A DNA stretch of 61,626 bases from a virus (IMGVR_UViG_3300036853_000113:1-61626); one strand, 5' to 3'. Shown: positions 37,528-53,973, counted from the first letter of the stretch. Translations and numbers: made by a program. Notes: generated by a model not told the origin, from the sequence alone.

Positions 37528-37697
37528 CGCGCCAGCGAGTGAAAGTTATCCATAACCCGCCGAGAGCACCAATGAAGGCGAGTGAGCCACAATCCGCGAG
37601 AGCACCATGGGTAATGAGCGAACCATGTCCGGCGAGAGCACCAACAACGGAGAGTGAACCACCGAGGATGAGAGCACCAGAAAACATGAGTGAACCC
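37527..37697 (+). ncRNA. TIGR-type dual-repeat array A (4 full plus 1 degenerate 36-nt units)
   Basis: GAGAGCACCA-N8-GAG(T/C)GA(G/A)CCA-N8 period, e.g. gagagcacca atgaaggc gagtgagcca caatccgc. Confidence 0.8.
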
Positions 37698-37698
37698 G

Positions 37699-37944: not shown

Positions 37945-39824
37945 AAGTGAGCAAAGCAAAGTTGAAACATTTCCGCAGCCACCGCCATACTGTGCTGCAA
38001 TTCGAGCGCGTGAACTTCCTTCGCGGCCTGAACAAGAGTGGGAAGTCGAGCGTCGCGCAGGCAATCGAGATGGCTCTCAGTGGCCGCTGCTCGCTGACTG
38101 ATGAAGGCGGCAGAGGCTGGGAGCAGCTCATCGAAGAAGGTGCGCAGACAGCCACGATCGTGCTGGAGTGTCCTGCGTTCACGGTCACGCTGACGCTCGA
38201 CCGCACAGTCGGTCGCACGTTCAAGGTCGAGCTTCCCGGCACGACCATCCTCGGCAAGCAGGCGCAGGATTGGCTCGCAGAGAAGATTGCGCCGCCTGAC
38301 GTGATCAATGCCGCCCTGAACGCATGGCGCTTCATTCGCATGGACGAGAAAGATCAGGCGTCACTACTAGCGCGCGTTCTGCTGCCTGCGAAGCTGGAGC
38401 TAAGTCAGGAAGTATCCGACTGGCTCGGTGCAAACCGCCTGTCGGTGGTCGAGCGCCCGACACTCTTCGCCACCATCGAGGCGACGCATAAGGCCATCAG
38501 CTTCGCGCGGACTGAGGTTAATCGCAAGCTGCGCGACCTGAAGGCGATTGTCGAGCCCGATGAGGTCACAGGCAGTCGTGATGCAGTCAAGGCGAAGCTT
38601 GGCGACTTGCAGGCGCAGCAGACCGAAGCGAACCGGAAGCTGCTCGCGCTGTCGACGCGCGAGACTGCTGACCGGATGACCGCTGACCAGAAACTGATGT
38701 ACGAGCGAGACATCGACGCGCGCACGAAGGTGCTTACCGAGCTTCCCCCGCTCCTGTCGGCGAAAGCAGTCGAGAAGCTCGAAGCAGCTGCCCGGCTGGG
38801 GGTTCGTCACGCAGAGGTCCGCGCGTTGTTAGCTGCTGAGCGCCTCGCCCTGACGTCGGCTGAGCAGGACGTGGAGAAGCTCAGCAAGGACGACGAAACA
38901 GGCGTCTGCCCTACCTGCAAGGCCACGCTGACAGAAGCCTCGCGCAAGGCTATGTTCGCTCCGTACATGAGCAGGCTGAACGACGTTCACGCCACCATCA
39001 AGCGCTTAGAGAAGGAACTGAAAGACACCAGCGACAGCGAAGAAGCAGCGGCCCAGCTCGCGGCCCACAAGAACGAGGTACGACGTCGCGAGGAACTGCG
39101 CGAGACGCTGGAGCAGCTGCGGGAACGTCACGCCACACTCTTCGCTGTGAGAGAGCGCGAGCCGCTCGACTTCACTGAGACGGCTGAGCAGTTGCAGACA
39201 GAACTCGAAGCCTTGAAGCAGCGCATCATTCGCGGCCTCGATGTGCTGGTGAAGATGGTCGAGGCCGAGGAAGCTGTCAAGCTCTACAAGTCGCAGATGG
39301 CAGAGCGCCAGAAGGCCGAAGCCAGGTTGTCCGAGCTGGAGAAACTGCTCGACTACTTCGGCCCCAGCGGTATCAAGGCGAAGCTCATCGCAGAGCGCCT
39401 GAGCCTCTTTACAGAGCGCGTGAACGCTGTCCTGCAATGGTGGGGTTATTCACTTTCATTCACTATCGAGCCCTACAGTCTGCGCATCACTGAGGCCGAT
39501 ACCCCGCACATCAGCCTGACACCGAATCAGCTGAGCGAAAGTGAGAGTTACCGGCTTGGCATCGCCTTCGCGGTTGCAATCGCGCAGTGGACCGGCCTGC
39601 GGTTTCTCATCGCCGACGCAGCTGACATCCTCGACAAGTATGACAAGTGGAACTTGGCGCAGGCGCTGCTGGAGTCTGACCTCGACCAAGCCATCGTAAC
39701 GTCGACCGGCATCGCTCCTGTGTTCGAAGCAGAGGGTACGGCCTTTTACACGCTGTCGAAAACAGGCGGCATCACGGCAACAGAACTGGACGCGCAGACA
39801 AGTCTCGCGACAACGAGCGTATGA
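37941..39824 (+). CDS. SbcC/Rad50-like SMC ATPase with zinc hook
   Basis: Walker A GLNKSGKS, long coiled coil, CPTC hook, LSESE signature, LIADAAD. Confidence 0.8.
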   Translation: MKVSKAKLKHFRSHRHTVLQFERVNFLRGLNKSGKSSVAQAIEMALSGRCSLTDEGGRGWEQLIEEGAQTATIVLECPAFTVTLTLDRTVGRTFKVELPGTTILGKQAQDWLAEKIAPPDVINAALNAWRFIRMDEKDQASLLARVLLPAKLELSQEVSDWLGANRLSVVERPTLFATIEATHKAISFARTEVNRKLRDLKAIVEPDEVTGSRDAVKAKLGDLQAQQTEANRKLLALSTRETADRMTADQKLMYERDIDARTKVLTELPPLLSAKAVEKLEAAARLGVRHAEVRALLAAERLALTSAEQDVEKLSKDDETGVCPTCKATLTEASRKAMFAPYMSRLNDVHATIKRLEKELKDTSDSEEAAAQLAAHKNEVRRREELRETLEQLRERHATLFAVREREPLDFTETAEQLQTELEALKQRIIRGLDVLVKMVEAEEAVKLYKSQMAERQKAEARLSELEKLLDYFGPSGIKAKLIAERLSLFTERVNAVLQWWGYSLSFTIEPYSLRITEADTPHISLTPNQLSESESYRLGIAFAVAIAQWTGLRFLIADAADILDKYDKWNLAQALLESDLDQAIVTSTGIAPVFEAEGTAFYTLSKTGGITATELDAQTSLATTSV

Positions 39825-40282
39825 CGAAAACAGAGTACGCGGAATATCTTCAATCCGAGCACTGGAAACGACTTCGACGTGAGGCGATTACTGACTGTCC
39901 TGAGTGCTTTCGCTGCGGGATTCCGCGCGACCTTGCGCGGGAGATTTATGACCAGGACTTACACGTTCATCACAAGCGATACAACCTCTGGCGTGAAGAC
40001 CTGAGTGATTTAGAAGTGCTGTGTCGCCGTTGTCATGACATCGAGACACACGGCGGCACGAGGATTCGACAGGCTCCCGGTTACCCCGCGCCAGATCTGC
40101 GACAGGTGATCTCCGAGCCTCCGTGTGAAGTCGTGGTGTATCGCAGCGGCTTCGGTCATCCGGTTATTAGACAGGCTGCTGGCGTCGGAGAACTTGAGGA
40201 CGCCCGCATCTATCTGCGGCAAGGCGATTTGCCGAGACTGATTCGCGCGCTAGTTGCCCTGGAGCGTGGTCGTGCTGAATGA
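39821..40282 (+). CDS. HNH endonuclease domain protein
   Basis: YAEYLQSEHWKRLR...CFRC...LHVHHKRY...DLEVLCRRCH. Confidence 0.8.
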   Translation: MTKTEYAEYLQSEHWKRLRREAITDCPECFRCGIPRDLAREIYDQDLHVHHKRYNLWREDLSDLEVLCRRCHDIETHGGTRIRQAPGYPAPDLRQVISEPPCEVVVYRSGFGHPVIRQAAGVGELEDARIYLRQGDLPRLIRALVALERGRAE

Positions 40283-41196
40283 CAACTTACAGAATCCCAA
40301 TCAGCAATGGGATCTTCGCTCATCGTAAGCGGATCGGGGCAGCGATATGGGTATTTCTGTGGCTGATCGACAAGACGACGAAAGAGGTGGAAGCAGTGGA
40401 CGGTGAAAGCATGGACGGCTTGGTATTCGGTGGTCGCCCGGTCACGATGAGCGCAGTCGCCGGAGACCTACAAATGTCGATCAACGGCGTCCGTGATCAG
40501 CTTAGTCAGCTTTTGAAAGGTGGTTATATCCGGGCGATTCAACATGGTGCCGGAATTGCAAATGGGTACGCAGTTCTTAACTCGAAAAAATGGGGCAGGA
40601 GCGGTACCCACGAGGAAGAGTCTGAAGCTGTAGTAGACCCCACCGGAAAACTGGAGGGGTCCACCGGAAAAGTAGAGGGGCCACCCATCGGAAAAGTAGA
40701 GGGGGTCCACCGGAAAACTGTGGGGGGTCCACCGGAAAACTGTGGGGGGTCCACCGGAAAACTCCCACAGCATAATAGGAAAGACAATACAAACAATACA
40801 AAACAATCCAATACAACCAACGGAGAGTTGACGGGGGATCTGACTCTGTTCGGTGACGACTTCCTGACTCCCGAGCAGGCGAAGGCTCGTGCGGAGTCTG
40901 AAGCGCTAGCTAAGGTCTGGAATCACTACCTCGAACAGACTGGCCGCAACAGCAACATTTACGAGTTCTCCGAGTCGCGACGCGATAAGGGTCTGCTTCG
41001 CCTGAGAGAGTGCGCACAGAAGGCTGGTGGCGACTACGACAAAGCCGCCCAGCTGATGTGTGTCTCTATCGACGCGCTCGTTGCTTCCGACTGGCACGCG
41101 GGCCGTGATCCGAGAACTCACGGTAAACGATACCTCGATTGGGAACGCAACTTGTTCAAGAGCTATGACCAGATGGAAAAGTGGTGGAACGAATGA
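40279..41196 (+). CDS. Replication initiator protein (lambda O-like architecture)
   Basis: N-terminal wHTH (AIWVFLWLI...AVAGDLQMS), internal iterons, conserved-looking C-terminal domain. Confidence 0.7.
   Translation: MTTYRIPISNGIFAHRKRIGAAIWVFLWLIDKTTKEVEAVDGESMDGLVFGGRPVTMSAVAGDLQMSINGVRDQLSQLLKGGYIRAIQHGAGIANGYAVLNSKKWGRSGTHEEESEAVVDPTGKLEGSTGKVEGPPIGKVEGVHRKTVGGPPENCGGSTGKLPQHNRKDNTNNTKQSNTTNGELTGDLTLFGDDFLTPEQAKARAESEALAKVWNHYLEQTGRNSNIYEFSESRRDKGLLRLRECAQKAGGDYDKAAQLMCVSIDALVASDWHAGRDPRTHGKRYLDWERNLFKSYDQMEKWWNE
40640..40820 (+). repeat. Replication origin: six ~21-bp iterons followed by an A/C-rich tract
   Basis: CCA(C/T)CGGAAAA(C/G)T-GGGG(T) x6 at 40640-40761, then repeated ACAATAC, inside the initiator gene. 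Confidence 0.75.
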
Positions 41197-42953
41197 CGCT
41201 GAGCTTCGAACAGATTCGCGCATACTTCGAGCACCTGTTGCCGGGTCAGCGGATCGGAACGCGCAATAAGCTTTCGGTGAAGTGTCCCTTCCATGACGAC
41301 CGCACGCCCTCGATGACGTTGTTCCTTGATGGAGCTGGAGGCGCGCACTGCAACGGCTGCGGCGCTGGTGGAAACATCTTCCAGCTTGAGGCGAGGCGCT
41401 CTGGCTGCACGCTGGCGGAGGCGGAAGCGAAGGTCGCGGAGATCACTGGAGCACGCGCGTCCTTCGGCAGCTATGCAAAACTGGGCCCTGTCATTGCCGC
41501 TTACGACTACCGTGACAGCGACTGGGTAGTGCTCTATCAGAAACGCCGCTATCAGCCTGAAGGCGAGCCAAAGACGTTCCGCGTATATCGGCCAACTGAT
41601 TCGGGTAACTGGGTCAGCGGCATCGACGCACCTGATGAGCCACCCACAAAGCGCGTGCTCTACAACCTACCGTTGCTCATCACGGCGAATGTTGCCATTG
41701 TCTGCGAGGGTGAGAAGGACTGCGAGAACGTCGCTCACTGCGGACTCTGGACACAGCGCAGCACTCTTCGTGCCGCGACAACCTGCAACTTCGACGGCGC
41801 ATGGCGAACAGGAGAAAAGGCAAAGTGGCTACCACACTACAATCCGTTTTTCGCAGGCAAGCTGGTTATCGTGTTCGTCGACAATGACGAGTCAGGCACA
41901 GTCTGGTCGCAGACTGTTGCGGCAAGCATTTACCCGTATGCGTATCAGGTGAAGATCGTCACGCTGCCGGGACTACCGGAAAAGGGCGACGTCTCCGACT
42001 GGCTTCTCACCCACACAACAGTAGAACTTGAAGAGCAGATAGGGCGCGCGAGGGCATGGCGTCCACTGGTTGAGCAGCGCGCGTTCAGTATGTTTCAGGA
42101 CGCTGTAGAGTTCGCGGCTGAGGCCGACAAAACAGTCGACTGGCTCGTGACTGGCGTCATCCCCAGAGCAGGCAACGGAATCATCGGCGGCCATCCCAAG
42201 GCTTCAAAGAGTTTCACTGCGTTAGACATCGCGATTGCCGCGAGCTGTGGTGCTCCCTGGATGGGACATGCGATCTCGACTCGTGTACGGACGGCAGTTG
42301 TCAGCCGCGAAGATGAACCGGGTCTAACGCAACGCCGAATCAAAAAGCTCATCTGCGGTCGACCGGAATATCAACAGCTTGAAGGTTGGTGCCTGCTCAA
42401 CACGCGACGCCACACAGCCGACTTCAAGGTCACCAACGATCAGCAGATGGACTTGCTCATCGAGCAACTGGGACGCTTCAACGCGCAACTCGTCGTGCTC
42501 GACGTCTTCCGCACAATTCACGACGCTGAAGAAAACGACAACACTGAAGTGGCACGCGTGCTAGCGAAGGTTACGCGCATTCAGACTGAGCTTCGCTGTG
42601 CAGTCGCGCTCGTTCATCACATCGCCAAGGTCGACGAAGGCGACATCTTTAAGGGCCTCCGCGGAGCGAGCGCGATTCACGGATGGATGGAGTGGGGAAT
42701 CGGCATCAGTATCAGTAACCCAGAGAGCGAGGACAGAGCGGAGTACATCCGCCGCGCGGAGTTTGAAAGTAAAGAAGGCGCAGCGTCTCCGGTTTACTTC
42801 CAGATTTCAGAGTCTGCTGACAACTCCTCGGTCGAGCTGCGAAGCGTTCCCAGACCGGATAAGAAGACGACCGCGAAGCGTTCAGTTGCGTCGCAGAACA
42901 CAACCAACGCGTTGCTCTTACTGCCAGAGCGTGAGCGAAGGGATTTGATGTGA
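41193..42953 (+). CDS. Primase-helicase (CHC2 zinc finger, TOPRIM, RepA/AAA_25 helicase)
   Basis: CPFHDDRTPS...CNGC; VCEGEKD; DNDESG; GDVSDW; GHPKASKS; VVLD; LVHH; RGASAI. Confidence 0.9.
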   Translation: MTLSFEQIRAYFEHLLPGQRIGTRNKLSVKCPFHDDRTPSMTLFLDGAGGAHCNGCGAGGNIFQLEARRSGCTLAEAEAKVAEITGARASFGSYAKLGPVIAAYDYRDSDWVVLYQKRRYQPEGEPKTFRVYRPTDSGNWVSGIDAPDEPPTKRVLYNLPLLITANVAIVCEGEKDCENVAHCGLWTQRSTLRAATTCNFDGAWRTGEKAKWLPHYNPFFAGKLVIVFVDNDESGTVWSQTVAASIYPYAYQVKIVTLPGLPEKGDVSDWLLTHTTVELEEQIGRARAWRPLVEQRAFSMFQDAVEFAAEADKTVDWLVTGVIPRAGNGIIGGHPKASKSFTALDIAIAASCGAPWMGHAISTRVRTAVVSREDEPGLTQRRIKKLICGRPEYQQLEGWCLLNTRRHTADFKVTNDQQMDLLIEQLGRFNAQLVVLDVFRTIHDAEENDNTEVARVLAKVTRIQTELRCAVALVHHIAKVDEGDIFKGLRGASAIHGWMEWGIGISISNPESEDRAEYIRRAEFESKEGAASPVYFQISESADNSSVELRSVPRPDKKTTAKRSVASQNTTNALLLLPERERRDLM

Positions 42954-43216
42954 TGAGACCGAAGACGTTACACGAGATGTGGCTGCACTTCGCTCTGATG
43001 ACGCTCGACGCGCGAGCGACTCAGGCGCAGATTGACGATACAGAGACTGCGTTCAAAGCTGGCGCGTCGTGCGTTCTGTTGGAGCAGTTCAACGTTGTCG
43101 CTGAGCTTCCAGACGCCGAAGGGTCGACAGCGCTGCGCGACTGGCTTCGCGAGTCGAACGAGCATTTCGCGAAGTATCGCACACCGAAGGAATCGAGAGA
43201 GAACACCCATGACTGA
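42950..43216 (+). CDS. Hypothetical protein
   Basis: Coupled to primase stop; QIDDTETAFKAGA. Confidence 0.6.
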   Translation: MMRPKTLHEMWLHFALMTLDARATQAQIDDTETAFKAGASCVLLEQFNVVAELPDAEGSTALRDWLRESNEHFAKYRTPKESRENTHD

Positions 43217-43436
43217 CGACATTATCCTCGCACGCTTTGAGGCCATTGAAGACGACCTCCGCACCCTTCACGCAACCTTCGACGGCGCTCTGGTCGACAT
43301 GAACGACGTCACAGGCAAACTGAACAGCGTCATCACAGGCACGCTGGCAGGTAACGAACGCACCGAGCAGTTCATGGACGCGATGAACGTCATGCTGGCG
43401 CGCATCACGCTGATTTTGGACTCACTGAAGAAATGA
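43209..43436 (+). CDS. Hypothetical coiled-coil protein
   Basis: ATG 43209 after GAGAG. Confidence 0.55.
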   Translation: MTDDIILARFEAIEDDLRTLHATFDGALVDMNDVTGKLNSVITGTLAGNERTEQFMDAMNVMLARITLILDSLKK

Positions 43437-43440
43437 TCAT

Positions 43441-43540
43441 GTCGCGGTAGGGCCAGCCTGGGCCCGGTATGGCGTGACTGGGCACGGCGGGGCAAGGCGA
43501 GGGCTCGCGTCCTCAGAGGCGCGAGCACAACACTAACGAA
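43441..43540 (+). ncRNA. GGY-NN pentamer tract plus hairpin, unit 1 (putative guide RNA)
   Basis: 11 in-register pentamers 43446-43500, hairpin GCTCGCG..CGCGAGC 43503-43526, A/C tail. Confidence 0.75.
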
Positions 43541-43570
43541 CGATCTCACGGCGAAAGAGAGAGCTTCCCA

Positions 43571-44206
43571 ATGTACAAAACACTAACGCGCACTCTTGTT
43601 GGCGTTTCTCCGCTACTGATGCACAACGGACGGTTGGCGAATCCGCTGGATCCTATTGCAAAGATGATGAAAGAGGTCACGTCAAAGCGGAAAAAAACAG
43701 ATGACGATTACGAGCTGATGTCGAACATTGAGTGGCTGGGTTCGATCTACACCACCGATGACCTCACGGTCAAGATTCAGGGCTACAAGGTAACGGTCGC
43801 GTGCTTCGGCCAACTCTGTATTCCGGGGGAAAACGTGGCGGCGTTGCTAGCGTTCGCCGGAGCCAAGTCACGCCGGAAGCAGGCGTTCACCGCAGGAATT
43901 TTAATCGAGGGCGACTTCCCGTTGCAGCTGGCTAGTTCGCTGAGCATTCCCGAGATATTCGCAAAACCGGGTTATCGCCTCATCGAAGGAGTGCGCGTTG
44001 GGAACTCTCGTGTGATGCGGACACGCGCTATCTTTCGTTCGTGGAAGCTCCCCCTTCGGATTCAGTATCTTCCGCAGTTGCTTAATCCCCGCGAAGTAGA
44101 TGAGACGCTCATCCTCGGTGGTCAGATCGGAGGGCTCGGAGACTATCGCCCGAAGTATGGCCGGTTCTCTGTGGAGAATGTCGCAGGAGAGGCGCAGGCG
44201 GCCTAA
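43571..44206 (+). CDS. Stand-alone Cas7/RAMP-like RNA-binding protein (Vipr-like)
   Basis: LVGVSPLLMHN (beta1), LCIPGENVAALL (RAMP IPG helix), RTRAIF..W, C-terminal Gly-rich loop GGQIGGLGDYRPKYGRF. Confidence 0.75.
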   Translation: MYKTLTRTLVGVSPLLMHNGRLANPLDPIAKMMKEVTSKRKKTDDDYELMSNIEWLGSIYTTDDLTVKIQGYKVTVACFGQLCIPGENVAALLAFAGAKSRRKQAFTAGILIEGDFPLQLASSLSIPEIFAKPGYRLIEGVRVGNSRVMRTRAIFRSWKLPLRIQYLPQLLNPREVDETLILGGQIGGLGDYRPKYGRFSVENVAGEAQAA

Positions 44207-44228
44207 ACAGAATAGACGGTTGCATCAG

Positions 44229-44352
44229 GGCAAGGTGTGAGCGTGGCTTGGTAAGGCGGTGGCGATGGCGCGGCTGGGCGGGGTATGGCAGGATCCGGTT
44301 TGGCATGGTTTGGTTCGGAACCGCGTTCCCAGGAGCGCGGAAGTTTAGTAAG
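44229..44352 (+). ncRNA. GGY-NN pentamer tract plus hairpin, unit 2
   Basis: About 17 units (three are 6 nt) 44229-44316, hairpin CCGCGTTC-CCAG-GAGCGCGG 44321-44340, tail AAGTTTAGTAAG. Confidence 0.75.
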
Positions 44353-44366
44353 TCAGTCTCACACGC

Positions 44367-44468
44367 GGCGGGACACGGCTTGGCGTGGCGGGGCTAGGCG
44401 GGGATCGGCACGACTAGGCGGGGCAAGGCAGGGACCCGCGCTCTCAGAAGCGCGGAAAGTTTAAGAAA
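44367..44468 (+). ncRNA. GGY-NN pentamer tract plus hairpin, unit 3
   Basis: 13 in-register pentamers 44367-44431, hairpin CCGCGCT..AGCGCGG 44436-44455, tail AAAGTTTAAG. Confidence 0.75.
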
Positions 44469-44493
44469 CGATTTCCTCGAACTTCTCGTTCAT

Positions 44494-44643
44494 GGCTTGG
44501 TGGGAACGAGGTGCGGCACGGCGGGGTGAGGCCCGATGAGGCCCGGTATGGCAGTGTAAGGCGTGGCCCGGCTGGGTGTGGAATGGCCTGGTGTGGTGTG
44601 GCAGGGGGCCGCGTTTTCCGGAACGCGGTCACAACTAAACAAA
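44494..44643 (+). ncRNA. GGY-NN pentamer tract plus hairpin, unit 4
   Basis: About 22 units 44494-44604 (19 in strict register), hairpin GGCCGCGTT..AACGCGGTC 44607-44630, tail ACAACTAAAC. Confidence 0.75.
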
Positions 44644-44655
44644 CGGAGATGGGAA

Positions 44656-45099
44656 ATGCAATCACGGTATCCACTCGACTGGGAGTTACTACAAAAGGGC
44701 GACGTGCTCGACGCTGAGACGCTGAAGGATATAACTGGAAAGACGCCGGGAAGTGATGAGTTTCGATTCGCGTGCATGGGCCTGCAAGCATTGATTCAGG
44801 AGAAGACAGGCTTCACTGTGAAGCTGCCGAGTGATAACTCACTGCGCGTGTTGACAGACCCAGAGGCAGCAGCGCACAACGAGCGCCTGTTCTGGCAATT
44901 CATGCGGTCGATGGTTACACGCCACACCCTGAACTGCTCTGTCGACGTCGACAATCTAGAGGCGACACAGCGAGCGCAGCATGACCGCACGCTGCTTGCT
45001 CAATCGCGTTACGTATCAGCAGTGGCGCAGACGACGAAAGAGATTGTGCTTGCAAGAAATCCTCCCGAGCCAGAACCGCTCGACGATGGAACGCGATGA
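44656..45099 (+). CDS. Hypothetical protein, candidate accessory of the RAMP/GGY-NN locus
   Basis: ATG 44656 with GGAG RBS directly after the last hairpin unit. Confidence 0.65.
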   Translation: MQSRYPLDWELLQKGDVLDAETLKDITGKTPGSDEFRFACMGLQALIQEKTGFTVKLPSDNSLRVLTDPEAAAHNERLFWQFMRSMVTRHTLNCSVDVDNLEATQRAQHDRTLLAQSRYVSAVAQTTKEIVLARNPPEPEPLDDGTR

Positions 45100-45617
45100 T
45101 CACGACGAAGGCATTCAATGAGGTCACCGCGCAGAAGCGTCGCTCGATGGCGGCGCGGCTGAAGCCTCGTTACTGGAAGTCAGGCAAGCGCGCAGGCATG
45201 GTGCGCACGCCAGGGTGCGAGCTGCCGTTCAGCCTGCACCAGTTTCGCCAGTGGGCAATGGAGAAGGTCGGCCTCGGCATCGTGTCATGTCACTACTGCC
45301 CTCGGCCTGTCGATGTGTTGAGCTTCGAGCCGGATCACTATGTACCGATCGCACTCGGCGGAAGCTTCGGCCTCGACAACCTTGTGGTGAGCTGTAGCGA
45401 CTGCAACAAAATGAAGGACTCGATGCTGCCGCAGGATTTCATCGACCTGATGAAGTTCCTCGAAACAAATATGTCGCGAGTGAGTGCGAACAACGTCACG
45501 AAGCGCCTGCGAGCTGGCTCGATGGGCATCAAAAACAGATTTCATAAACCGTCAGTTGAGGGAGCGAAGAAACCGCCTGCGCCTGTCGCGACGACGCAGG
45601 AGATGGATTTCTTCTAG
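45096..45617 (+). CDS. HNH endonuclease
   Basis: CHYC...FEPDHYVPIALGGSFGLDNLVVSCSDCNKMK. Confidence 0.85.
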   Translation: MITTKAFNEVTAQKRRSMAARLKPRYWKSGKRAGMVRTPGCELPFSLHQFRQWAMEKVGLGIVSCHYCPRPVDVLSFEPDHYVPIALGGSFGLDNLVVSCSDCNKMKDSMLPQDFIDLMKFLETNMSRVSANNVTKRLRAGSMGIKNRFHKPSVEGAKKPPAPVATTQEMDFF

Positions 45618-46173
45618 CCATCTTCCTAGCGAGCACCAGAAGAACTGAGCGAGCCATGTAACCCAATAGCACCACGAGACAGTGAGCGAGCCAAGCACAG
45701 CGAGAGAGCACCAGCAAATGAGAGCGAGCCATAACATGCGCGAGCACCAGATAAGTCGAGCGCACAGCCGGATGACATGCGAGCACCAATAACGGAGAGC
45801 GAGCCACGAGACGTGAGAGCACCAACAACCCAGAGCGTCAGCCACTTCACTTGCGAGTACCAATCATGCGGAGCGCAGCCATGAGAAAGGAGAGCACCAA
45901 GATTGCTGAGTGAGCCAAGATGCCTGAGAGCACCAGAAAAAGAGAGCGCAGCCAAACAGCGCGAGGGCACCAATGGTAAGGAGCGAGCCCGGATATGGCG
46001 AGAGTGCCAACAGGAGTGAGCGAGCCAACACAGTAGAGAGCGCCAGGAAGAAAGAGCGCAGCCACAATGAACGCGAGCACCAGCGCTCCAGAGCGAGCCA
46101 ATGTAGTAGAGGGCGCCATTGACGCCGAGCGAGTCAAGCAATTCGAGAGCACCCAGAGCACAGAACGATACCA
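45616..46173 (+). ncRNA. TIGR-type dual-repeat array B (15 units of ~36 nt)
   Basis: Alternating G(A/C)GAGCACCA and GAG(C/T)G(C)AGCCA repeats separated by 8-9 nt variable spacers. Confidence 0.85.
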
Positions 46174-46196
46174 GTTACACAAAGGAGCGCAACACC

Positions 46197-47108
46197 ATGA
46201 CTGATCTTGTTTTAGAGCCGCTGCAACGTCTTACGAAAGACCTTGCGAACGCCTCCATCACCCTCACCGTCCGCGAGGCGCGTTACCTCGTCGATGCTTA
46301 CTACATGCTTCAGGAGAATCGCATCGCTGCTGATCATCAGGTGCGCACGCTCATTAAGGGCGACGAGCCGCATCAGGTGATTGAATGGCTCGCGGCTCAG
46401 AATGAAGGGCTTGAGCACCAGATCAAGCGCGCGCTCGACAAGTGGACGGACGGCAATCCTGTCGGCGTGTGGGCGAAAAGCATCTGCGGTATCGGTCCTG
46501 TCATCAGTGCAGGACTGCTCGCGCACATCGACATTGCCGGATGCCCCACGGTCGGCCACATCTGGAGCTTCGCCGGTCTGGACCCGACGAAGAAGTGGAA
46601 CAAGGGCGAGAAGCGGCCATACAACGCATCGTTGAAGTCGCTCGTCGCATTCAAGCTGGGCGAGTCGTTCGTCAAGGTTCAGGCGAATCAGAACGACATC
46701 TACGGGAAGGTATATGTCGAGCGGAAGAAGCTGGAGCAGGAACGCAACGAGGCGCAGCTCTTCGCAGCGCAGGCGAAGGTCGGGCTGGAGCGCGTAAAGA
46801 AGACGACGGACGCGCATAAATACTACAAAGAAGGCAAGCTGCCGCCAGCGCAGATACACGCACGAGCACGACGCTATGCGGTGAAGCTCTTCCTCGCGCA
46901 TTACCACGCGGCTGCGTTCTTCTCGCGCTTCGACATGATGCCGCCGTTTCCGTATGCTTTCAGTCATCTCAAGAGCCACGTACATTTTCTTGCACCGCCT
47001 AACTGCCATTTGATCGAAGGCATGCCGGCTGCGCTTGCACGTTATGAGCGCGAGCTACTGGAGAGTCAGGCAACCAAAGCCGTCGAGAGTACCCAGATTG
47101 CTGAGTGA
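46197..47108 (+). CDS. TIGR-associated Nop-domain protein without nuclease domain (TasA-like; IS110 C-terminal-domain homologue)
   Basis: Coiled coil then WAKSICGIGPVISAGLLAHID...IWSFAGLDP...ARARRYAVKLFLAH; no N-terminal RuvC DEDD; flanked by arrays; AAGGAG RBS. Confidence 0.85.
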   Translation: MTDLVLEPLQRLTKDLANASITLTVREARYLVDAYYMLQENRIAADHQVRTLIKGDEPHQVIEWLAAQNEGLEHQIKRALDKWTDGNPVGVWAKSICGIGPVISAGLLAHIDIAGCPTVGHIWSFAGLDPTKKWNKGEKRPYNASLKSLVAFKLGESFVKVQANQNDIYGKVYVERKKLEQERNEAQLFAAQAKVGLERVKKTTDAHKYYKEGKLPPAQIHARARRYAVKLFLAHYHAAAFFSRFDMMPPFPYAFSHLKSHVHFLAPPNCHLIEGMPAALARYERELLESQATKAVESTQIAE

Positions 47109-47368
47109 GCCACGCATGACGGAGAGCACCACAAACCGTGAGCGAACCAAGTAGGTTGAGAGCACCCGGAACGACGAGTGAGCCATCACGCGGGAGAGCA
47201 CCACAAAACACGAGCGCAGCCAGAACTCCTGCGAGCACCAAGAATAGAGCGAGCCAATGATTCGGAGAGCACCAGTTGGGAGTGAGCGAGCCAAAGAAAA
47301 AAGGAGAGCACCACCAATGCAGAGTGAGCCAGCGACCAAGATAGCACCGGAGCAGGAGAGCGCGATCA
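47069..47368 (+). ncRNA. TIGR-type dual-repeat array C (8 units)
   Basis: Same repeat pair; first unit overlaps the 3' end of the Tas gene. Confidence 0.85.
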
Positions 47369-47673
47369 CAAGGATCATCGCCTTCCTTTACGACCTGTAT
47401 GTCAACAAGTGTCTAGAGTCACTCGCGCGGAAGGACCGGCTGAACTACGTGCGCGCATCGAGCAACACGCGCTTGGAACTGGAGTGGGTGCGCTATACAG
47501 ACAGTCCAGATTGTCTGCTGATGATCCGAAAGCGCTACGCTGACGGGTCGACGGCGCGTATCGTCCTGACGGAACGCGAGGCAGAGGTCATCTTGCAGCT
47601 TCATGCGGAGCCGCACACGATCAACGAATTAGCAACGACTGGAGCAGAAAGGAAAAAGATTCATGCGTGCTGA
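47317..47673 (+). CDS. Hypothetical protein, start uncertain, overlapping the end of array C
   Basis: AAGGAG at 47301 and ATG 47317 lie inside the array. Confidence 0.4.
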   Translation: MQSEPATKIAPEQESAITRIIAFLYDLYVNKCLESLARKDRLNYVRASSNTRLELEWVRYTDSPDCLLMIRKRYADGSTARIVLTEREAEVILQLHAEPHTINELATTGAERKKIHAC

Positions 47674-48331
47674 AGAAACGTTCTTTCGAGGTTATCGCCG
47701 CGAGACACTGATCACTGGGGCGACGGTGCTATGCAACGCAGCAGGCGAGAAGCGACTGAAGCTGTCGATGAGCCTGCCGCTGTCGGGTGATCAGCTTGTC
47801 GGGATGCCATCGTGGGTTGGTGAGCCTTTCGCAATCATCGCCAAGCCGGAATACAAAGTGAAGTCTATCAACTGCACGACAGAGCTTGACCCGATGATCC
47901 TGCACGTCTTCGCGTTGCCGGAAGGCGAGAAAGAGATCATGACTCTGCACTCGGTGCGCCTGTGCAGCTTCAGAATCGAGCGCGAAACCGACGAGGAGTA
48001 TCCGCCGATAGCGCTCAACTTCAGCACATACGTTCCCGGCACTGGGAAATTTCTGAAGTTTGCAGATGACTACTTCGAGAAGTCAATCTTCATTCGGTAC
48101 GAGGCTGCGCAGCAGAGCCTTCTCGACGACAACCCCAACCAACAACCTGTCGACCCGGCTCCGCTACTGATGCCGCCGAACGGAGCAGCGTCGAAGCCAC
48201 CCAGCGATGACTTCGAAGAAGACAGGAAGGCTGCGAATGATTCTGCGCTGGACCCTGAATTTGAAATGCCGAAGCCAGCGGCAGCAGCGAGACGAGCGAA
48301 ACGTGCTCCTGTCGAAGTCGGCGTTCAATAA
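47663..48331 (+). CDS. Hypothetical protein
   Basis: 222-aa ORF with RBS. Confidence 0.65.
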   Translation: MRAEETFFRGYRRETLITGATVLCNAAGEKRLKLSMSLPLSGDQLVGMPSWVGEPFAIIAKPEYKVKSINCTTELDPMILHVFALPEGEKEIMTLHSVRLCSFRIERETDEEYPPIALNFSTYVPGTGKFLKFADDYFEKSIFIRYEAAQQSLLDDNPNQQPVDPAPLLMPPNGAASKPPSDDFEEDRKAANDSALDPEFEMPKPAAAARRAKRAPVEVGVQ

Positions 48332-48512
48332 CCACGAGGGGCTGAGAGCACCAAACGATGCGAGTGAGCCAAGTAGCCAGAGAGCGCCAAGGTCGGCGAG
48401 TGAGCCAGTGACCATGAGAGCACCATTGCACTACGCGCGAACCAATTACGCCGCGAGCACCACACTTGTCGAGTGAGCCAGGATGTCTGAGAGCACCACA
48501 CACGGAGAGCGC
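48330..48512 (+). ncRNA. TIGR-type dual-repeat array D (5 units)
   Basis: gagagcacca aacgatgc gagtgagcca agtagcca ... with 36-nt period. Confidence 0.8.
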
Positions 48513-48672
48513 ATTTCCGTATATCTACCGCTGGCACCGCATGGACCGCAAGGATCAGAGGCTGCGCGTGCTAGCGCGGGGAAAGATGAACAGCGTGCTC
48601 GTCGAGTTCGAAGGCGGTTACATCGCAGTGACGAGTGGGAATGCACTACGCAAGGCGAAGGCGCAGACCTGA
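48466..48672 (+). CDS. Small SH3-like phage protein, start uncertain
   Basis: YIYRW...RVLARGKMNSVLVEFEGG..VTSGNALRK. Confidence 0.45.
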   Translation: MSSEPGCLRAPHTESAFPYIYRWHRMDRKDQRLRVLARGKMNSVLVEFEGGYIAVTSGNALRKAKAQT

Positions 48673-48780
48673 ATGTTGATACCAGAACCAGTGCATACGT
48701 GGCTGTGGTTCTTCTGTCTTGGCGCTTTCGTGTGCTACCTGATCATGCGGAGATAGAACGAAAAAGGAGAAGCAATTGTT

Positions 48781-50106
48781 ATGTCGATTCTCAATCTGAA
48801 TTACGTTCTGTGGGATGAAGTGAAGAAGGCAAAGGTAGCAGGCTGGCCGCTACCGGCAACGTCTGCTGACCTCTACGCATACCAGCGCATCGAGCGAGCT
48901 GCACCGGAATACAAGAAGGCAGGCTTCACAGCTGCGCTCTTTCAACCGAGTCAGCGGGGGGCTGCTGGCAGATTCTCGAATGGCTACGACAAGAAGGACG
49001 ACTACGAACTGGACGGCACTTCATGGGGCGACGGCGCAATGGGCATCGCAGCTGTGAGCGCGCTGCACGATGAAGGCATGAAGGTCTACGGCGATTTGGT
49101 TCTGCATCAGATGAGCGGCTATCCGCGACAGCAGTACACGACACCGCGGTTCCCCAAAGACCCAACCTGCTTTGCGTGGACGCCGGGCGCAGTCAGGTGG
49201 CCGGGCAACGTCGCTCCTGACTCGGTGCCTGATCCCAAGGGCGGCTACCCTGACGGTGATCTCTGCGCGTATGACCAACCGAATCGCTATATGTGGAACG
49301 GTGCAATTGCAGCGACGATCTGGCTCGCAGATGAGATGGGCTTTGACGGCTTCCGCATTGACGAGGCGAAAGACTTGCACGCGGATTTTCTGCGCGCTCT
49401 GATGGATACGCAGAGACTCCATAACAAGTTTTTCTTCGGAGAATACTTCGACGGCAATCCCTTCGCGCTTGCAGGTTGGGTCAACTACTGGATGCACCGC
49501 AGAGCGTCTGCGCTCGACTTCATGTTTAAGTTCAACGTCGGGCGCATCTGTAACAACGCAGGTAATGTGTGGATGGGTGAGCTGTCGCGCATTGGCCTCA
49601 ATATGATTGAGCCTTTCAAGGCTGTCACCTTCCTCGAATCGCACGACACAGACACGACACCCGGCGAGCAGATCATTTCTAACAAGATGCTCGGCTACGA
49701 CATCATGCTCACTTTCCCTGGCGAGCCGATGGTCTATTACCGCGACTGGTCGACCGACGCGCACTGCTACGGGATGAAGGAACGAATCAACAACGGGCTA
49801 TGGATTCATCAGCACCTCGCGCAAGGCGATTTCGTCACTCGTCATGCGGAGTATCAAACCTTTGCGCACGAGCGCCTCGGTCGAGGGAAGGCACCCGGCT
49901 GCATCTGTCTGTTCAACAACGATCCTTACAACGCGCACACCATCACTGTTCAGACTCGGCACCCGCGCGACACGAGGCTGCACGAGTTTACCGGCAATGC
50001 AGGTTACTCTGCCGACGTGTGGACTGATTGGTGGGGCTGCATCACTGCGACGGTCCCGCGCAACGTCAACGGCTGCAACTCTCTCGTTTACGCACCCTAC
50101 CTGTAA
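48781..50106 (+). CDS. Alpha-amylase family glycoside hydrolase (GH13)
   Basis: NGYD, VYGDLVLHQ, GFDGFRIDEAK, FGEYFD, AVTFLESHDTD, PGEPMVYYRD. Confidence 0.9.
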   Translation: MSILNLNYVLWDEVKKAKVAGWPLPATSADLYAYQRIERAAPEYKKAGFTAALFQPSQRGAAGRFSNGYDKKDDYELDGTSWGDGAMGIAAVSALHDEGMKVYGDLVLHQMSGYPRQQYTTPRFPKDPTCFAWTPGAVRWPGNVAPDSVPDPKGGYPDGDLCAYDQPNRYMWNGAIAATIWLADEMGFDGFRIDEAKDLHADFLRALMDTQRLHNKFFFGEYFDGNPFALAGWVNYWMHRRASALDFMFKFNVGRICNNAGNVWMGELSRIGLNMIEPFKAVTFLESHDTDTTPGEQIISNKMLGYDIMLTFPGEPMVYYRDWSTDAHCYGMKERINNGLWIHQHLAQGDFVTRHAEYQTFAHERLGRGKAPGCICLFNNDPYNAHTITVQTRHPRDTRLHEFTGNAGYSADVWTDWWGCITATVPRNVNGCNSLVYAPYL

Positions 50107-50131
50107 AAGTCGCTCGTCGGAGGTTCCTCAG

Positions 50132-52006
50132 ATGAACTGGCTCAAGTCGCTCGTCGCAGTCATGCTGCTGACAGGATCGCTGTCAGCGCAGCAGATGGTT
50201 CCCTGGCTCACTCGCGCAGCTGACAATCAGCAGAGCGGGTGGAACTCTCACGAGACGCTACTCACGCAGGCGCTCATCGCCTCGAAGGGCGTCACGCGCA
50301 GGACCATCATCCCGGTGACAGGCGACGCGCGAGGCATGGAAGCGCAGCCGCTGATCCTGCCTGCTGTCTCGACGCCGCGAGGCGTGCGCGACGTCATGGT
50401 GCTTCCTTCGATGGCGAACGTCGTGCGAGGCGTCGATGCGCACGACGGCACAGGTATCTGGTCGACCTCGCTCGGCGCTCCTGTAACCGGCTCGCCGATG
50501 ATCGACATGCATGGTATCAATCAGCACTGGGGCTGTCTCTCGACCGGCGTAATCGACGCGACGACTCGCAGGCTGTATCAGGTCTGTTGGGCTTCTCCTG
50601 ACGGCTCTGGGAGCCCCCTGACGGCACGCTATTACATGAACGTGCTGAACGTGGGCGATGGAAGTATCGTGGGCGCGCCGATTCTCATTCAAGGCACGAG
50701 CCAGAGCGACGACTTCAATGCGCAGATGAGGAAGCAGCGCGCCTCGCTCGTCGAGGCAACCGTCGCAGGCGTCAGGACCGTCTTCGGGTGCGCTGGGACC
50801 GTCTCAGAGACGTCGAGGGGCTCGGCAGGCTATTGCTTCGCCTTCGACGTCAAGAGCAACACCCTGACAGCTCTGACAGCGCTCACCGCAGGCCAAGGCG
50901 CAGGCGTCTGGATGTCAGGCGCATCTCCTTCTGCTGACAAGGACGGGAACCTCTTCCTCGTGACCGGCAACGGTGCCTTCGACGGGGTAACTCAGCTCGG
51001 CGAGACGTTTCTCAAGCTGACATATATCCCGCCGACACCGAGCACGCCTGCGAGTCTGACAGTCACTGATCACTGGACGCCTTGGACAGACCTCTCGCGC
51101 GCCGGTCAGGTCGCACCCCCCGGTCCGAAGCTCGCAGGCGCACACGCGCCTTCTGAGGCGCTGCGGCAGCCTGTCGGTGGCGGCATGTCGATGTCACTGC
51201 GCAACGCTCGTGCGCGCATCAGCATGACCGCTGACGGCCCCTTGCTGCTCGTCTATCCGCAGATGGCACAAGGCGCATGGGCTGATCAGGATTGGGGATC
51301 GGCAGGGCCTGCGTGTCTGTTTCAGATAGGCGTCTGCATCGTTACAGGGAAGGACGGTATCGCGTACCCGATCAAGGCTTACGCGATGGGCGGCACGACT
51401 CTCGCAGACCTGGCTCACTCGAAAACTAATTGCGCGAAGCTCGCTGCGCCGCCTGTGTGGGCGACGATGAATCCCGGCCCCGTCGATCCTTGTCCGACGA
51501 ACACTGCGACACTGAACTTCTTTCCTCGCGGCGTGACAGCTCACCTCCACATGACGCCAGTTCAGATGTATGATCCGCTCCTGCAATCGTGGACGCTCTT
51601 CCTGTGGGGCGAGAACTCTCAACTACACAAGTGGAAGGTGAGCGACACAGGCGCGATGACTTACGTCGCGCAGAGTCACGAGTTCGCGAGCGCTGATGCG
51701 AGAGGAACCTCACCGGGGGGAATGACGGGCGGATTTTGCGCGGGGTCGAGCAACGGCGGTGATCCTAACAGCGCCATCCTCGTCTGCACAATTCCCTACG
51801 GAAACGCAAACGCAGTCGTCGGCCCCGGTCGCATGCTGGTCTACGATCCCATCCACCTCGCAGCTGATGGCTCTTTGAAAGTTCTATGGGACTCGCAGCG
51901 ATGGGGTGTGGCGTTTCTGTTCAATAAGTTTGATCCTCCGCTGATCGACGGCGGCGAGGTCATCGTTCCAAACTACAATGGCGGCGTCGACGTTTACGCG
52001 CCCTGA
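50132..52006 (+). CDS. Secreted PQQ-like beta-propeller protein
   Basis: Signal peptide MNWLKSLVAVMLLTGSLSAQ; AQPL, GCLSTGVID, GVWMSG, LFLVTGNG, DQDWGSAGP, KFDPPLIDGGEV. Confidence 0.7.
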   Translation: MNWLKSLVAVMLLTGSLSAQQMVPWLTRAADNQQSGWNSHETLLTQALIASKGVTRRTIIPVTGDARGMEAQPLILPAVSTPRGVRDVMVLPSMANVVRGVDAHDGTGIWSTSLGAPVTGSPMIDMHGINQHWGCLSTGVIDATTRRLYQVCWASPDGSGSPLTARYYMNVLNVGDGSIVGAPILIQGTSQSDDFNAQMRKQRASLVEATVAGVRTVFGCAGTVSETSRGSAGYCFAFDVKSNTLTALTALTAGQGAGVWMSGASPSADKDGNLFLVTGNGAFDGVTQLGETFLKLTYIPPTPSTPASLTVTDHWTPWTDLSRAGQVAPPGPKLAGAHAPSEALRQPVGGGMSMSLRNARARISMTADGPLLLVYPQMAQGAWADQDWGSAGPACLFQIGVCIVTGKDGIAYPIKAYAMGGTTLADLAHSKTNCAKLAAPPVWATMNPGPVDPCPTNTATLNFFPRGVTAHLHMTPVQMYDPLLQSWTLFLWGENSQLHKWKVSDTGAMTYVAQSHEFASADARGTSPGGMTGGFCAGSSNGGDPNSAILVCTIPYGNANAVVGPGRMLVYDPIHLAADGSLKVLWDSQRWGVAFLFNKFDPPLIDGGEVIVPNYNGGVDVYAP

Positions 52007-52875: not shown

Positions 52876-53100
52876 CTATTCGCGCTCCAGTTCGTACACC
52901 TCACCTGTCACAGCGTTGGTGACAGTTCCTTGCTCAATCAGCAGCGGGATGAAGCCCCCCATCAAGCCGTCGCCTGCACGGACGAATCCCTCTGGCGTGA
53001 GGCCGACTGACTTGCCATTTTCAGAGACGATTGCTACCACCGCCCTCGTCCACTCTTCATCGCCTGCGCGCCTGATGCGCACGAAGTCGCCGCGCTTCAT
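52876..53100 (-). CDS. Hypothetical protein
   Basis: ATG overlaps upstream stop. Confidence 0.5.
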   Translation of the reverse strand: MKRGDFVRIRRAGDEEWTRAVVAIVSENGKSVGLTPEGFVRAGDGLMGGFIPLLIEQGTVTNAVTGEVYELERE

Positions 53101-53471
53101 GTTCGCGCCTTCCCTTCCATCCTGGCGAACACAAAGGGCGCATCCTGCCACTTGCGCATGAACGCGTGCAGGTCGCCATCGTTTAACAGCTCAAAGGAGT
53201 ACGGCTTGGGCAGCTTCGAGCGCGCAATCAGTTCCTGAACGATCAGGCGCACGGACGCGATCATGTAAGCTCTCGTGCCCTTCGCCTTCAGTTCGTACCA
53301 GCTCTTTTCATCAGTCGAGTCAAAAGGCTTTTCGTCTTTGTAATACCGGAATCGATACGTCATTTCGTAGTCAGAGTCAGGCGTGATCTCCCGCAACCCT
53401 GCCAGCCAATCGACGTCTTCCGCAAGGACCACGAACCAAGCGCCGACAATCTTCTCGTCAAACAGAATCAT
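53097..53471 (-). CDS. Hypothetical protein
   Basis: Coupled ORF chain. Confidence 0.55.
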   Translation of the reverse strand: MILFDEKIVGAWFVVLAEDVDWLAGLREITPDSDYEMTYRFRYYKDEKPFDSTDEKSWYELKAKGTRAYMIASVRLIVQELIARSKLPKPYSFELLNDGDLHAFMRKWQDAPFVFARMEGKART

Positions 53472-53685
53472 CGCCCATCAACTCTTTCCGATTCAGCGAG
53501 GCCGTCGCCATCATCAGCCCCTTCTCCGTGTAGACGCGCGCCATGTCCAGCGTCAGCCAGAGCAGCGTCTCGTTGCTCCCGTCCGTCTCTTCGAGGATGA
53601 CGCGCTCAGCAGCTGCAACAGCCTTAGCGATTATGTTCATGCGCGTGATTTCGCGCTCCTCTCGTTCCTCTCGTGACAGCATCAT
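53458..53685 (-). CDS. Hypothetical protein
   Basis: Coupled ORF chain. Confidence 0.45.
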   Translation of the reverse strand: MMLSREEREEREITRMNIIAKAVAAAERVILEETDGSNETLLWLTLDMARVYTEKGLMMATASLNRKELMGDDSV

Positions 53686-53969
53686 TGAACCTCTTTCCTC
53701 GTCGCGACGATGACGTCGCCAAGAATCGACCAGCCGGGATAACCCCCTGCCTGCGCGTACAGTGCTGACGCGATACCGTTGACTGGCGGTTCTGGCGTCT
53801 TACAGTGGGCGTCGTCGTCGCAGACCATCAGCCGACCGTCTGCCAGCTTTACAACGTCGATGCAGTCGCAGCCGAGGAAGCTATGGATTTCGCGCAGAGT
53901 GAAGCCTTCCTTCGGGTCGAGGGGGAAGACTTCAATTTTGCTGCCGTCAGTTCTGATCAGTGTCGCCAT
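53682..53969 (-). CDS. DUF3846-like protein
   Basis: FTLREIHSFLGCDCIDVV...MVCDDD...NGIASALY...ILGDVIV. Confidence 0.6.
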   Translation of the reverse strand: MATLIRTDGSKIEVFPLDPKEGFTLREIHSFLGCDCIDVVKLADGRLMVCDDDAHCKTPEPPVNGIASALYAQAGGYPGWSILGDVIVATRKEVQ

Positions 53970-53973
53970 TGTT

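Follow-up and report, generated by a model that had tools for sequence, protein, structure and literature searches.

A VIPR system beside a TIGR-TasA system in an uncultured soil phage looks like rare stacking of two independent RNA-guided weapons

Our analysis indicates that an uncultured soil phage (IMGVR_UViG_3300036853_000113:1-61626; the window, below, is this whole stretch of 61,626 nucleotides) carries a VIPR system directly adjoining a TIGR-TasA system at positions 43441-48512 of the + strand. The genes encode, among others, a RAMP, an accessory protein of 147 aa, an HNH protein and a Tas that lacks a nuclease domain; alongside them lie four GGY/NN guide RNAs and three TIGR arrays, with a fourth array outside this interval (Table 1). 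Judged by sequence, both modules are systems that have already been described, VIPR and TIGR-TasA, and their neighbourhood looks more like two separate weapons that were stacked, a rare event, than like a combined new machine, because the relatives of the phage hold VIPR or TIGR-TasA, never both. Taken as a whole, the locus is probably best explained as two self-sufficient RNA-guided repressors joined by mosaic recombination in the replication-gene region. The segment 41000-50000 is identical, with no differences, in a contig built by a second assembler (run X1, possibly the run of origin), thus the VIPR/TIGR junction is not an assembly chimera.

The original prediction had described two unrelated RNA-guided modules packed side by side, and this description holds: every listed element was found, all on the + strand and closely spaced, and neither effector has a nuclease domain. 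The overlapping stops and starts are also present, namely the ATGA shared by the accessory stop and the HNH start (45096-45099) and the 11 nt shared by the ORFs 47257-47673 and 47663-48331. The ATGA overlap is compatible with translational coupling; a scan of the region for consensus promoters and terminators gave nothing better than shuffles. The prediction made no mention of the fact that VIPR and TIGR-Tas are already named and characterised. Its remark that the combination was not known to have been described agrees with our literature search, which found no paper on VIPR paired with TIGR-Tas; the one paper found with both terms handles them separately.

Table 1. Features of the two modules (positions counted from the first letter of the window)
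Feature	Coordinates	Strand	Description
TIGR array 0	37562..37697	+	~8 half-repeats; between PD-(D/E)XK nuclease and SMC-like ATPase genes (Pfam)
vrRNA1	43446..43545	+	11 GGY/NN pentamers 43446-43500, hairpin ~43502-43526, tail
vipr	43571..44206	+	211-aa RAMP, homologous to SUSP1 Vipr
vrRNA2	44245..44365	+	tract with register slip, in phase 44267-44316; hairpin ~44321-44340, tail
vrRNA3	44367..44480	+	14 pentamers 44367-44436, hairpin, tail
vrRNA4	44510..44650	+	19 pentamers 44510-44604, hairpin, tail; overlaps RBS of accessory gene
vap-like accessory gene	44656..45099	+	147 aa; 44656 is the likely true start
stand-alone HNH endonuclease gene	45096..45617	+	173 aa; PF14279 36.9 bits, PF01844 35 bits
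TIGR array 1	45616..46155	+	~29 half-repeats, GAGCGAGCCA-N8-GAGAGCACCA-N8; begins at HNH stop codon
tasA	46197..47108	+	303-aa Nop-domain Tas, no nuclease domain
TIGR array 2	47085..47365	+	~15 half-repeats; overlaps tasA stop and 5' part of next ORF
ORF, no family	47257..47673	+	up to 138 aa; first part is array sequence
222-aa ORF	47663..48331	+	conserved beside tasA in sister phage, 69% identity
TIGR array 3	48344..48512	+	~9-10 half-repeats

The first module (43446-45099), which consists of vrRNA1, vipr, vrRNA2-4 and the vap-like gene, is identified by homology as a VIPR system. Profile A1 matched the PDB chain 36pp_D, 'SUSP1 Vipr protein', with an E-value of 4.2e-56, the alignment covering positions 3-187 of the 189 in the profile, and the vipr product matches phrog_4652 (E 6.3e-41). 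The AlphaFold2 model of Vipr reached a pLDDT of 94.4; the matches listed in a Foldseek search of this model against the PDB are CRISPR RAMP/Cas7-family chains, the best being a type III Csm3 (E 1.6e-4, TM ~0.47). The pattern GGYNN x5 with at most one mismatch occurs 35 times against 0.19 expected, always on the + strand within 43446-44607, and an in-phase GG scan of the window found only four places with at least 8/10 units, all in the vrRNA region. The four tracts hold ~10-19 pentamers each, GGY is kept in 9/11, 9/10, 10/14 and 16/19 units (vrRNA1-4), and all of them end in a conserved hairpin, CGCG-N8-10-CGCG, followed by a tail.

Homologues of the accessory gene lie downstream of vipr in 29/84 and 18/80 Vipr loci (tblastn; 47/164 together) and at none of the 117 other Tas loci; its cluster contains 36 loci. 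By these comparisons the accessory gene travels with Vipr and belongs to the RAMP module only, contrary to the idea that it is common to both modules. A tblastn search of GenBank phages gave no match to it. The model of the accessory protein has a pLDDT of 90.6, and its fold matches, mostly winged-helix regulators, are weak (E 0.2 or worse).

The second module (45096-48512 together with 37562-37697) is assigned, on its repeats and its effector, to the dual-repeat TIGR-TasA systems. The pattern GAGNGNNCCA-N8-GAGNGNNCCA was matched 34 times against 0.02 expected, 33 of the matches falling inside the four arrays (37562-37697, 45629-46155, 47085-47365 and 48344-48512), in which ~61 half-repeats of two alternating types, spaced 18 nt apart, make up ~30 units of 36 nt. 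The Tas ORF as listed spans 46119-47108 (329 aa), its likely start being the ATG at 46197 behind AGGAG, and its stop codon is embedded in the repeat that opens array 2. NF052498 TIGR_Tas_endo matches residues 54-265 of this ORF with 199.8 bits (cut-off 100); the protein also matches phrog_4285, and its profile finds TasR (9mty_A, E 5.3e-22) and TasH (21kl_A, E 5.1e-13) in the PDB. No nuclease family was detected in the Tas protein by Pfam or NCBIfam, and as the Nop match begins after only 53 residues of the 329-aa ORF (~27 in the 303-aa protein), there is no room for a nuclease domain. In its conserved C-terminal stretch, which aligns with TasR, H261 is invariant and Y253 nearly so. An identity with TasH, in which HNH is fused N-terminally to Nop, was considered and rejected: the HNH and tasA are distinct genes, parted by an array and by 9 in-frame stops, the HNH's own included. 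Of the two genes downstream of tasA, the ORF 47257-47673 has an uncertain true start because its first part is array sequence, and the sister phage lacks a homologue of it. The 222-aa ORF gives a weak lead to phage DUF669/FtsK-gamma-like DNA-binding proteins.

The occurrence of the two modules elsewhere was scored in 164 other Vipr loci (84 + 80) and 117 other Tas loci, the phage's own locus excluded; the loci are the best 80 matches of each scan with flanks of up to 10 kb per side, and many metagenome loci are short, with only 12/80 flanked by 3 kb or more on each side. By tblastn and HMM, Tas was found within the sampled DNA of none of the 164 Vipr loci and Vipr at none of the 117 Tas loci. 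Guide arrays with at least 9/10 units in phase show the same division (132/164 other Vipr loci, 0/117 other Tas loci). Whole-record checks agree. The sister phage G002 (98% complete) has the HNH (71% identity), TasA (82%), the 222-aa gene (69%) and TIGR arrays, and its whole record holds no Vipr; the complete phage G003, bearer of the closest Vipr, has Vipr (66%) and vap (71%), and its whole record holds no Tas. Apart from Vipr and vap, its 17-kb locus L007 contains nothing resembling the window. Among GenBank phages, Vipr occurs in 130 records and Tas in 3, with no overlap, and the 2 distinct Tas phages were checked as whole records. Gene families of SSB, exonuclease and helicase flank both kinds of cassette.

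These counts bear directly on the notion of one integrated island with common parts, which the original prediction had put forward together with a synteny count as its check: run on the sampled loci, the count found the modules carried separately, the outcome that had been named beforehand as refuting it. One would argue that the modules still form one functional island, sharing the HNH or guide processing or aiming at the same competitor, given that they are contiguous and co-oriented, that vap and HNH overlap by ATGA, and that some VIPR types are reported with nuclease vaps, HNH domains included. However, co-occurrence is 0 in 281 other loci and likewise absent when the closest relatives are taken as whole records, and the HNH of the sister phage has no vap upstream. 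Common RNA processing is unlikely on published grounds as well: 10.64898/2026.09.09.750476 reports that dual-repeat Tas cuts its own precursor via a Y/H loop. According to 10.64898/2026.04.26.720920, when the VIPR loci of SUSP1 and P. fulva were cloned in E. coli, vrRNAs were expressed and co-purified with Vipr, in a description that includes no Tas. We regard a single functional island as very unlikely.

The HNH gene deserves separate consideration. Its motifs are intact (C65-x2-C68, D80-H81, N95, C100-x2-C103-N104), the motif residues are invariant in the alignment, and the protein ends in a conserved E-x-DFF tail. The family is tiny, with 13 clusters among 5.8 billion proteins, and every visible context adjoins this TasA clade, so that a functional tie between HNH and TasA may exist. 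In the sister phage, which has no Vipr, the homologue sits between a mini TIGR array (L086 8221-8262) and a long array (8825-9560), upstream of tasA. Because of this position, we conclude from gene order that the HNH travels with the TIGR locus and is not a shared part of both modules, and the suggestion of its common use is not upheld. We infer that the HNH and 222-aa genes ride with the TIGR locus as lineage-specific passengers.

The same synteny, together with the small family, its invariant catalytic residues and the conserved tail, could be read in another way, with the HNH as a trans-acting nuclease of TIGR-TasA, in the manner of a TasH split in two: the site would be located by TasA and cut by the HNH, with VIPR independent. 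Both genes probably share a contig in a third lineage, as P0245 (HNH, 61%) and P0123 (Tas, 75%) each lie on a single contig of 23160 nt with the same sources, and TasH demonstrates that HNH and Nop domains can cooperate (PMC12045711). However, the lineages that share the HNH are relatives, so that the HNH/TasA synteny may be plain inheritance. The HNH is missing at other Tas loci: besides L247, a record 100% identical to our sequence, and L086, the sole tblastn match among 118 covers 39 residues in L144, and the next-closest Tas loci (66-69% identity) are also without it. Nor does it match the solved TasH in sequence, TasH being absent among the 12 PDB matches at E <=1, which are free HNH (4h9d) and Cas9/IscB HNH domains. 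Additionally, free-standing HNH genes commonly ride in phages as passengers, and TasA on its own represses in the assays published in 10.64898/2026.09.09.750476. A split TasH is, on balance, unlikely. It is quite unlikely, too, that the HNH is recruited in trans by TasA or Vipr-Vap, turning a silencer into a cutter, with two guides and one nuclease on a single early RNA; if true, two RNA-guided systems of unrelated kinds would here engage in natural cross-talk.

How the preferred pair of self-sufficient repressors might work can be sketched from published relatives. By homology with SUSP1, each vrRNA would be coated by Vipr protomers that grip its GGY triplets and expose its NN dinucleotides; these would pair with double-stranded DNA following the published scheme in which two bases pair and one is skipped, and the binding would block transcription of a competing mobile element. 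The TIGR arrays would be cut to 36-nt tigRNAs, whose two 8-nt spacers, as in published TasA, would pair with one DNA strand each and direct a TasA dimer that has no nuclease domain, and this dimer would block transcription. VIPR and TIGR-TasA would work in parallel, not as one machine, having become neighbours in this soil phage through mosaic exchange in the replication/recombination gene region. The inter-phage competition proposed in the original prediction corresponds to the printed function of the relatives of the RAMP module, since the VIPR preprints describe silencing of satellites and prophages (10.64898/2026.04.26.720920, 10.64898/2026.04.26.720927, 10.64898/2026.10.15.759431), and TasA is described as an RNA-guided repressor in 10.64898/2026.09.09.750476. 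In our phage, vrRNA targets scored by the one-base-skip rule in the window and 364 loci did not exceed shuffles, and no tigRNA spacer pair matched the window with <=1 mismatch. As no guide target was found, the role in competition is put forward by analogy only. A different use, in which either system, or both, would control genes of the phage itself or of its host (timing switches, host takeover) instead of combating mobile elements, would suit effectors that are repressors and not cutters and arrays placed at gene junctions within the replication region; the discussion of PMC12045711 lists gene regulation as a possible role. The failure of both kinds of guide to match the window speaks against it, as does the statement in the VIPR preprint that self-targeting was not above threshold in type III, type V and one further clade. 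We consider such regulation highly improbable.

Compared with known systems, the first module resembles the type II VIPR of the Escherichia phage SUSP1 in its homologous effector (E 4.2e-56) and in pentamer GGY/NN guides with a conserved structured 3' tail. Like VIPR in general, it is phage-encoded, has several vrRNAs (here one upstream and three downstream of vipr) and a small downstream accessory gene. Unlike in described VIPR systems, the vrRNAs downstream of vipr, three in number, precede the accessory gene instead of following it, and vrRNA4 has 19 units against 9-16 in 10.64898/2026.04.26.720920. The tail is read here as a simple hairpin; a pseudoknot is reported for the SUSP1 clade. The accessory protein has no detectable similarity to the vap1-position gene of Felixounavirus, that of wV8 giving an hhalign probability of 3.2%, and the host label is Acidobacteriota instead of the Enterobacteria and Pseudomonas known for VIPR.

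The second module is like TIGR-TasA (FpTasA, MbTasA) in that it is phage-encoded, with a Nop-domain Tas without nuclease domain, 36-nt units in which two kinds of 10-nt repeat alternate, set apart by a pair of short spacers, and arrays on both sides of tas that overlap coding-sequence ends. It has 8-nt spacers and 10-nt repeats, unlike the mostly 9-nt spacers in print. Unlike in FpTasA and MbTasA, its arrays are scattered over four places, with one lying 8.5 kb upstream, and a stand-alone HNH and a 222-aa gene occur among the arrays, where the literature gives a ParB-like partner. As in TasH, the HNH-Nop fusion of Salicola phage CGphi29, an HNH and a Nop protein occur at one TIGR locus, but here as separate genes 0.5 kb apart. 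Finally, the presence of two unrelated RNA-guided systems side by side in an accessory region recalls bacterial genomes and defence islands that stack CRISPR-Cas types; unlike those, the pair has no adaptation genes, both of its systems are nuclease-less silencers and its carrier is a virus.

The comparison with related phages implies that the VIPR and TIGR-TasA modules, both known RNA-guided silencers, are stacked in the window as a rare and probably incidental pairing. The elements that the original prediction had listed for 43441-48512, namely GGY/NN tracts, a RAMP gene, an accessory ORF, an HNH gene, TIGR arrays and a Tas gene, are present side by side, and each module shows the testable defining features of its published family. 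In this region two kinds of periodic non-coding sequence, GGY/NN pentamers and TIGR half-repeats, stand far above chance. The window is a complete viral contig of 61.6 kb; its structural genes lie on the minus strand, and a long replication and recombination block runs on the plus strand from about 34.9 kb. An assembly chimera was ruled out, since a second assembler's contig from the sequencing run X1, possibly the window's own source run and source DNA, covers 41000-50000 without one difference.

Features of the VIPR and TIGR-TasA modules in the window
Feature	Coordinates	Strand	Remark
211-aa protein (Vipr)	43571-44206	+	phrog_4652
147-aa protein (vap-like)	44656-45099	+	stop overlaps start of HNH gene
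HNH endonuclease	45096-45617	+	
303-aa Tas protein	46197-47108	+	NF052498
Unassigned ORF	47257-47673	+	
Unassigned ORF (222 aa)	47663-48331	+	
TIGR array	37562-37697	+	
TIGR array 1	45629-46155	+	
TIGR array 2	47085-47365	+	
TIGR array	48344-48512	+	

Scanning the window against Rfam and for tRNAs gave no match, and a promoter/terminator consensus scan scored no better than shuffles. PADLOC returned no match for Vipr, vap, Tas or the two unassigned ORFs and weak HNH-motif matches only for the HNH gene; Atlas searches with the 222-aa ORF and with vap led to unnamed viral clusters only. After the last TIGR array, 48781-52006 holds two genes that may be auxiliary metabolic genes, one GH13 alpha-amylase-like (a weak Pfam match of 20.1 bits, short of the cut-off) and one of 720 aa without a family; neither had a homologue in the fetched sister-phage loci.

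According to the discovery preprint (10.64898/2026.04.26.720920), Vipr is a minimal RAMP encoded by phages, which coats vrRNAs made of GGY/NN repeats and a 3' tail, and on double-stranded DNA the complex pairs two bases and skips one. The VIPR preprints, this one included, name competing satellites and prophages as the silenced targets. The pattern GGYNN x5 with at most one mismatch matched the window 35 times (0.19 expected), always within 43446-44607 on the plus strand, and the pentamers fall into four tracts, each with about 10-19 units and a conserved hairpin and tail at its end. The tract of vrRNA4 (44510-44604) has 19 units, compared with 9-16 given in the preprint, and may represent two staggered guides. 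No Pfam family matches the 211-aa protein; its AlphaFold2 model (pLDDT 94.4) resembles Csm3, Cmr4 and other Cas7 RAMPs in fold, and the profile of its relatives matches the solved 'SUSP1 Vipr protein' (36pp_D) of an Escherichia phage over the full length (E 4.2e-56). The coupling of the GGY/NN array to the vipr gene is general across the fetched loci: at least 9 of 10 GG units are in phase in 71/84 IMG/VR and 61/80 metagenome Vipr loci, and in 0/117 other Tas loci.

With tblastn, homologues of the 147-aa gene turned up immediately behind vipr and its arrays in 29/84 IMG/VR and 18/80 metagenome Vipr loci; the 117 other Tas loci had none. Therefore we assign this gene, as judged by its neighbours, to the VIPR module. 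Its protein model (pLDDT 90.6) gave weak fold matches, mostly to winged-helix regulators, none at E 0.001 or better. We call it vap-like and name no VIPR type because no similarity could be detected between it and the gene that occupies the vap1 position in Felixounavirus wV8. In 19/84 IMG/VR and 10/80 metagenome Vipr loci (for example L018, L019, L023-L025 and L070) the gene immediately upstream of vipr encodes an HNH protein of another family (PF01844, 22.5 bits) and may be a VIPR accessory gene of the nuclease type; its homologue in the window, at 39821-40282, is 3.3 kb upstream of vipr. One further Vipr locus, L074, carries GGNNN arrays on both strands (4091-4548 minus, 5277-5668 plus), face to face upstream of vipr.

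TIGR-Tas was described in PMC12045711. The 18-nt TIGR half-repeat pattern matched the window 34 times (0.02 expected), with 33 of the matches inside the four arrays, which are built of about 30 units of 36 nt, GAGCGAGCCA-N8-GAGAGCACCA-N8. A third repeat variant, GAGCGCAGCCA, replaces the usual edge-type repeat at 45758, 45871, 45942, 46054 and 47212, inside arrays 1 and 2, with the spacing off by 1-3 nt. The outlying array at 37562-37697 is 8.5 kb upstream of tasA, between the genes of a PD-(D/E)XK nuclease and an SMC-like ATPase; the equivalent junction of the sister phage has only 79 nt and no TIGR array. The 303-aa protein scores 199.8 bits against NF052498 (cut-off 100), and its profile matches the TasR and TasH structures. 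It is a Tas protein of the TasA kind, since it has no nuclease domain. When targets of the vrRNAs were sought with 0-3 skipped bases, no match in the window plus 166 loci, nor in 364 loci, exceeded shuffles, apart from a trivial self-match at skip 3 only. The tigRNAs had no self-target in the window at up to one mismatch (0 matches; 0 in 5 shuffles).

The original prediction saw the adjoining modules as one operon that might share processing or the HNH gene, and it proposed a count of co-occurrence. We ran this count on fetched loci, drawn from the best matches of each scan: 84 IMG/VR and 80 metagenome Vipr loci, and 82 IMG/VR and 36 genome Tas loci. Flanks of up to 10 kb were included, and the loci were searched by tblastn and by profile HMM on six-frame translations. 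Neither method detected a Tas gene in the 164 Vipr loci or a Vipr gene in the 117 other Tas loci within flanks of up to 10 kb; at least 3 kb on both sides was present in 55 Vipr and 64 Tas loci, L247 counted, and the metagenome set adds little. The sole locus with both genes is L247, the window's own 100%-identical copy. Whole phage records agree. The sister phage G002 (98% complete) shares synteny with the window over 32671-39824 and 52876-59055 and carries arrays, HNH (71% identity), TasA (82%) and the 222-aa gene (69%), and its whole record holds no Vipr. The complete phage with the closest Vipr, G003, has Vipr (66%) and vap (71%) and no Tas in the whole record; its 17-kb locus contains nothing resembling the window apart from these two genes. 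Among GenBank phages Vipr occurs in 130 records and Tas in 3, with no overlap. Related phages thus carry the modules separately: their adjacency is confirmed, and the reading in the original prediction is borne out in part, with no co-occurrence in relatives to support a coupling.

Incidental stacking is also consistent with the neighbourhood. SSB, exonuclease and helicase genes surround both kinds of cassette in other phages, and therefore a chance adjacency is easier. The replication block of the window consists of the other-family HNH gene, a 305-aa gene, a primase-helicase and the VIPR cassette, and the sister phage has a DnaB helicase there. Because the sister has the TIGR locus but another replication block without VIPR, the VIPR cassette would have arrived beside a TIGR locus already in place. 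The replication module itself is swapped: a primase-helicase (phrog_239) at 39821-43436 of the window versus a DnaB-type helicase (PF03796, 164 bits) at 5145-8124 of L086, the sister's TIGR locus.

The HNH gene among the arrays travels with the TIGR locus rather than being shared, since in the sister phage it has a mini TIGR array on one side and the long array on the other, and VIPR is absent from its surroundings. It is not a general Tas partner: among 118 Tas loci tblastn found it in L247 and L086, plus a 39-residue motif match in L144 only, and it is absent from Tas loci at 66-69% Tas identity. The gene gave no match to solved TasH, the HNH-Nop fusion, and a single HNH-array-Tas frame with the array inside a TasH-like gene was ruled out by 9 in-frame stops, HNH's own included. 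Its family comprises 13 clusters among 5.8 billion proteins. In the family alignment the catalytic residues and a basic N-terminal region are invariant, and the conserved C-terminal E-x-DFF tail looks like a docking peptide. A third lineage probably carries HNH and Tas together on one 23160-nt contig. Because of the tiny family, the invariant catalytic residues, the conserved tail and this third lineage, we keep a trans-acting nuclease at the TIGR locus as an improbable reading, for which this rare family is a concrete candidate. The only loose end in the stacking picture that deserves bench attention is this embedded HNH gene.

Each system entered the literature as recently as 2025-2026, and each is believed to give a virus the means of silencing mobile elements that compete with it. 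In keeping with the original prediction, the combination seems new, and the window appears to be the first case in which both systems are complete: we found no paper reporting both in one phage, though locus lists in supplements may include one. The available part of the VIPR discovery preprint mentions neither TIGR nor Tas; one paper, in its accessible part, recovers both array kinds separately by entropy periodicity and does not place them in one phage. With the window, the range of both systems comes to include phages of soil bacteria labelled Acidobacteriota. Given the negative co-occurrence in the fetched loci, each would be a small, self-contained cassette that moves independently of the other, with the same replication-gene neighbourhood as landing site for both. 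Because this phage has both in complete form, with about 36 guides altogether, it offers a natural setting in which to ask whether RNA-guided silencers of unrelated origin are redundant, complement one another or interfere. TasA has been shown experimentally to be an RNA-guided transcriptional repressor, and in the TasA loci described in the same report (10.64898/2026.09.09.750476) the arrays flank tas and overlap coding ends, as they do in the window.
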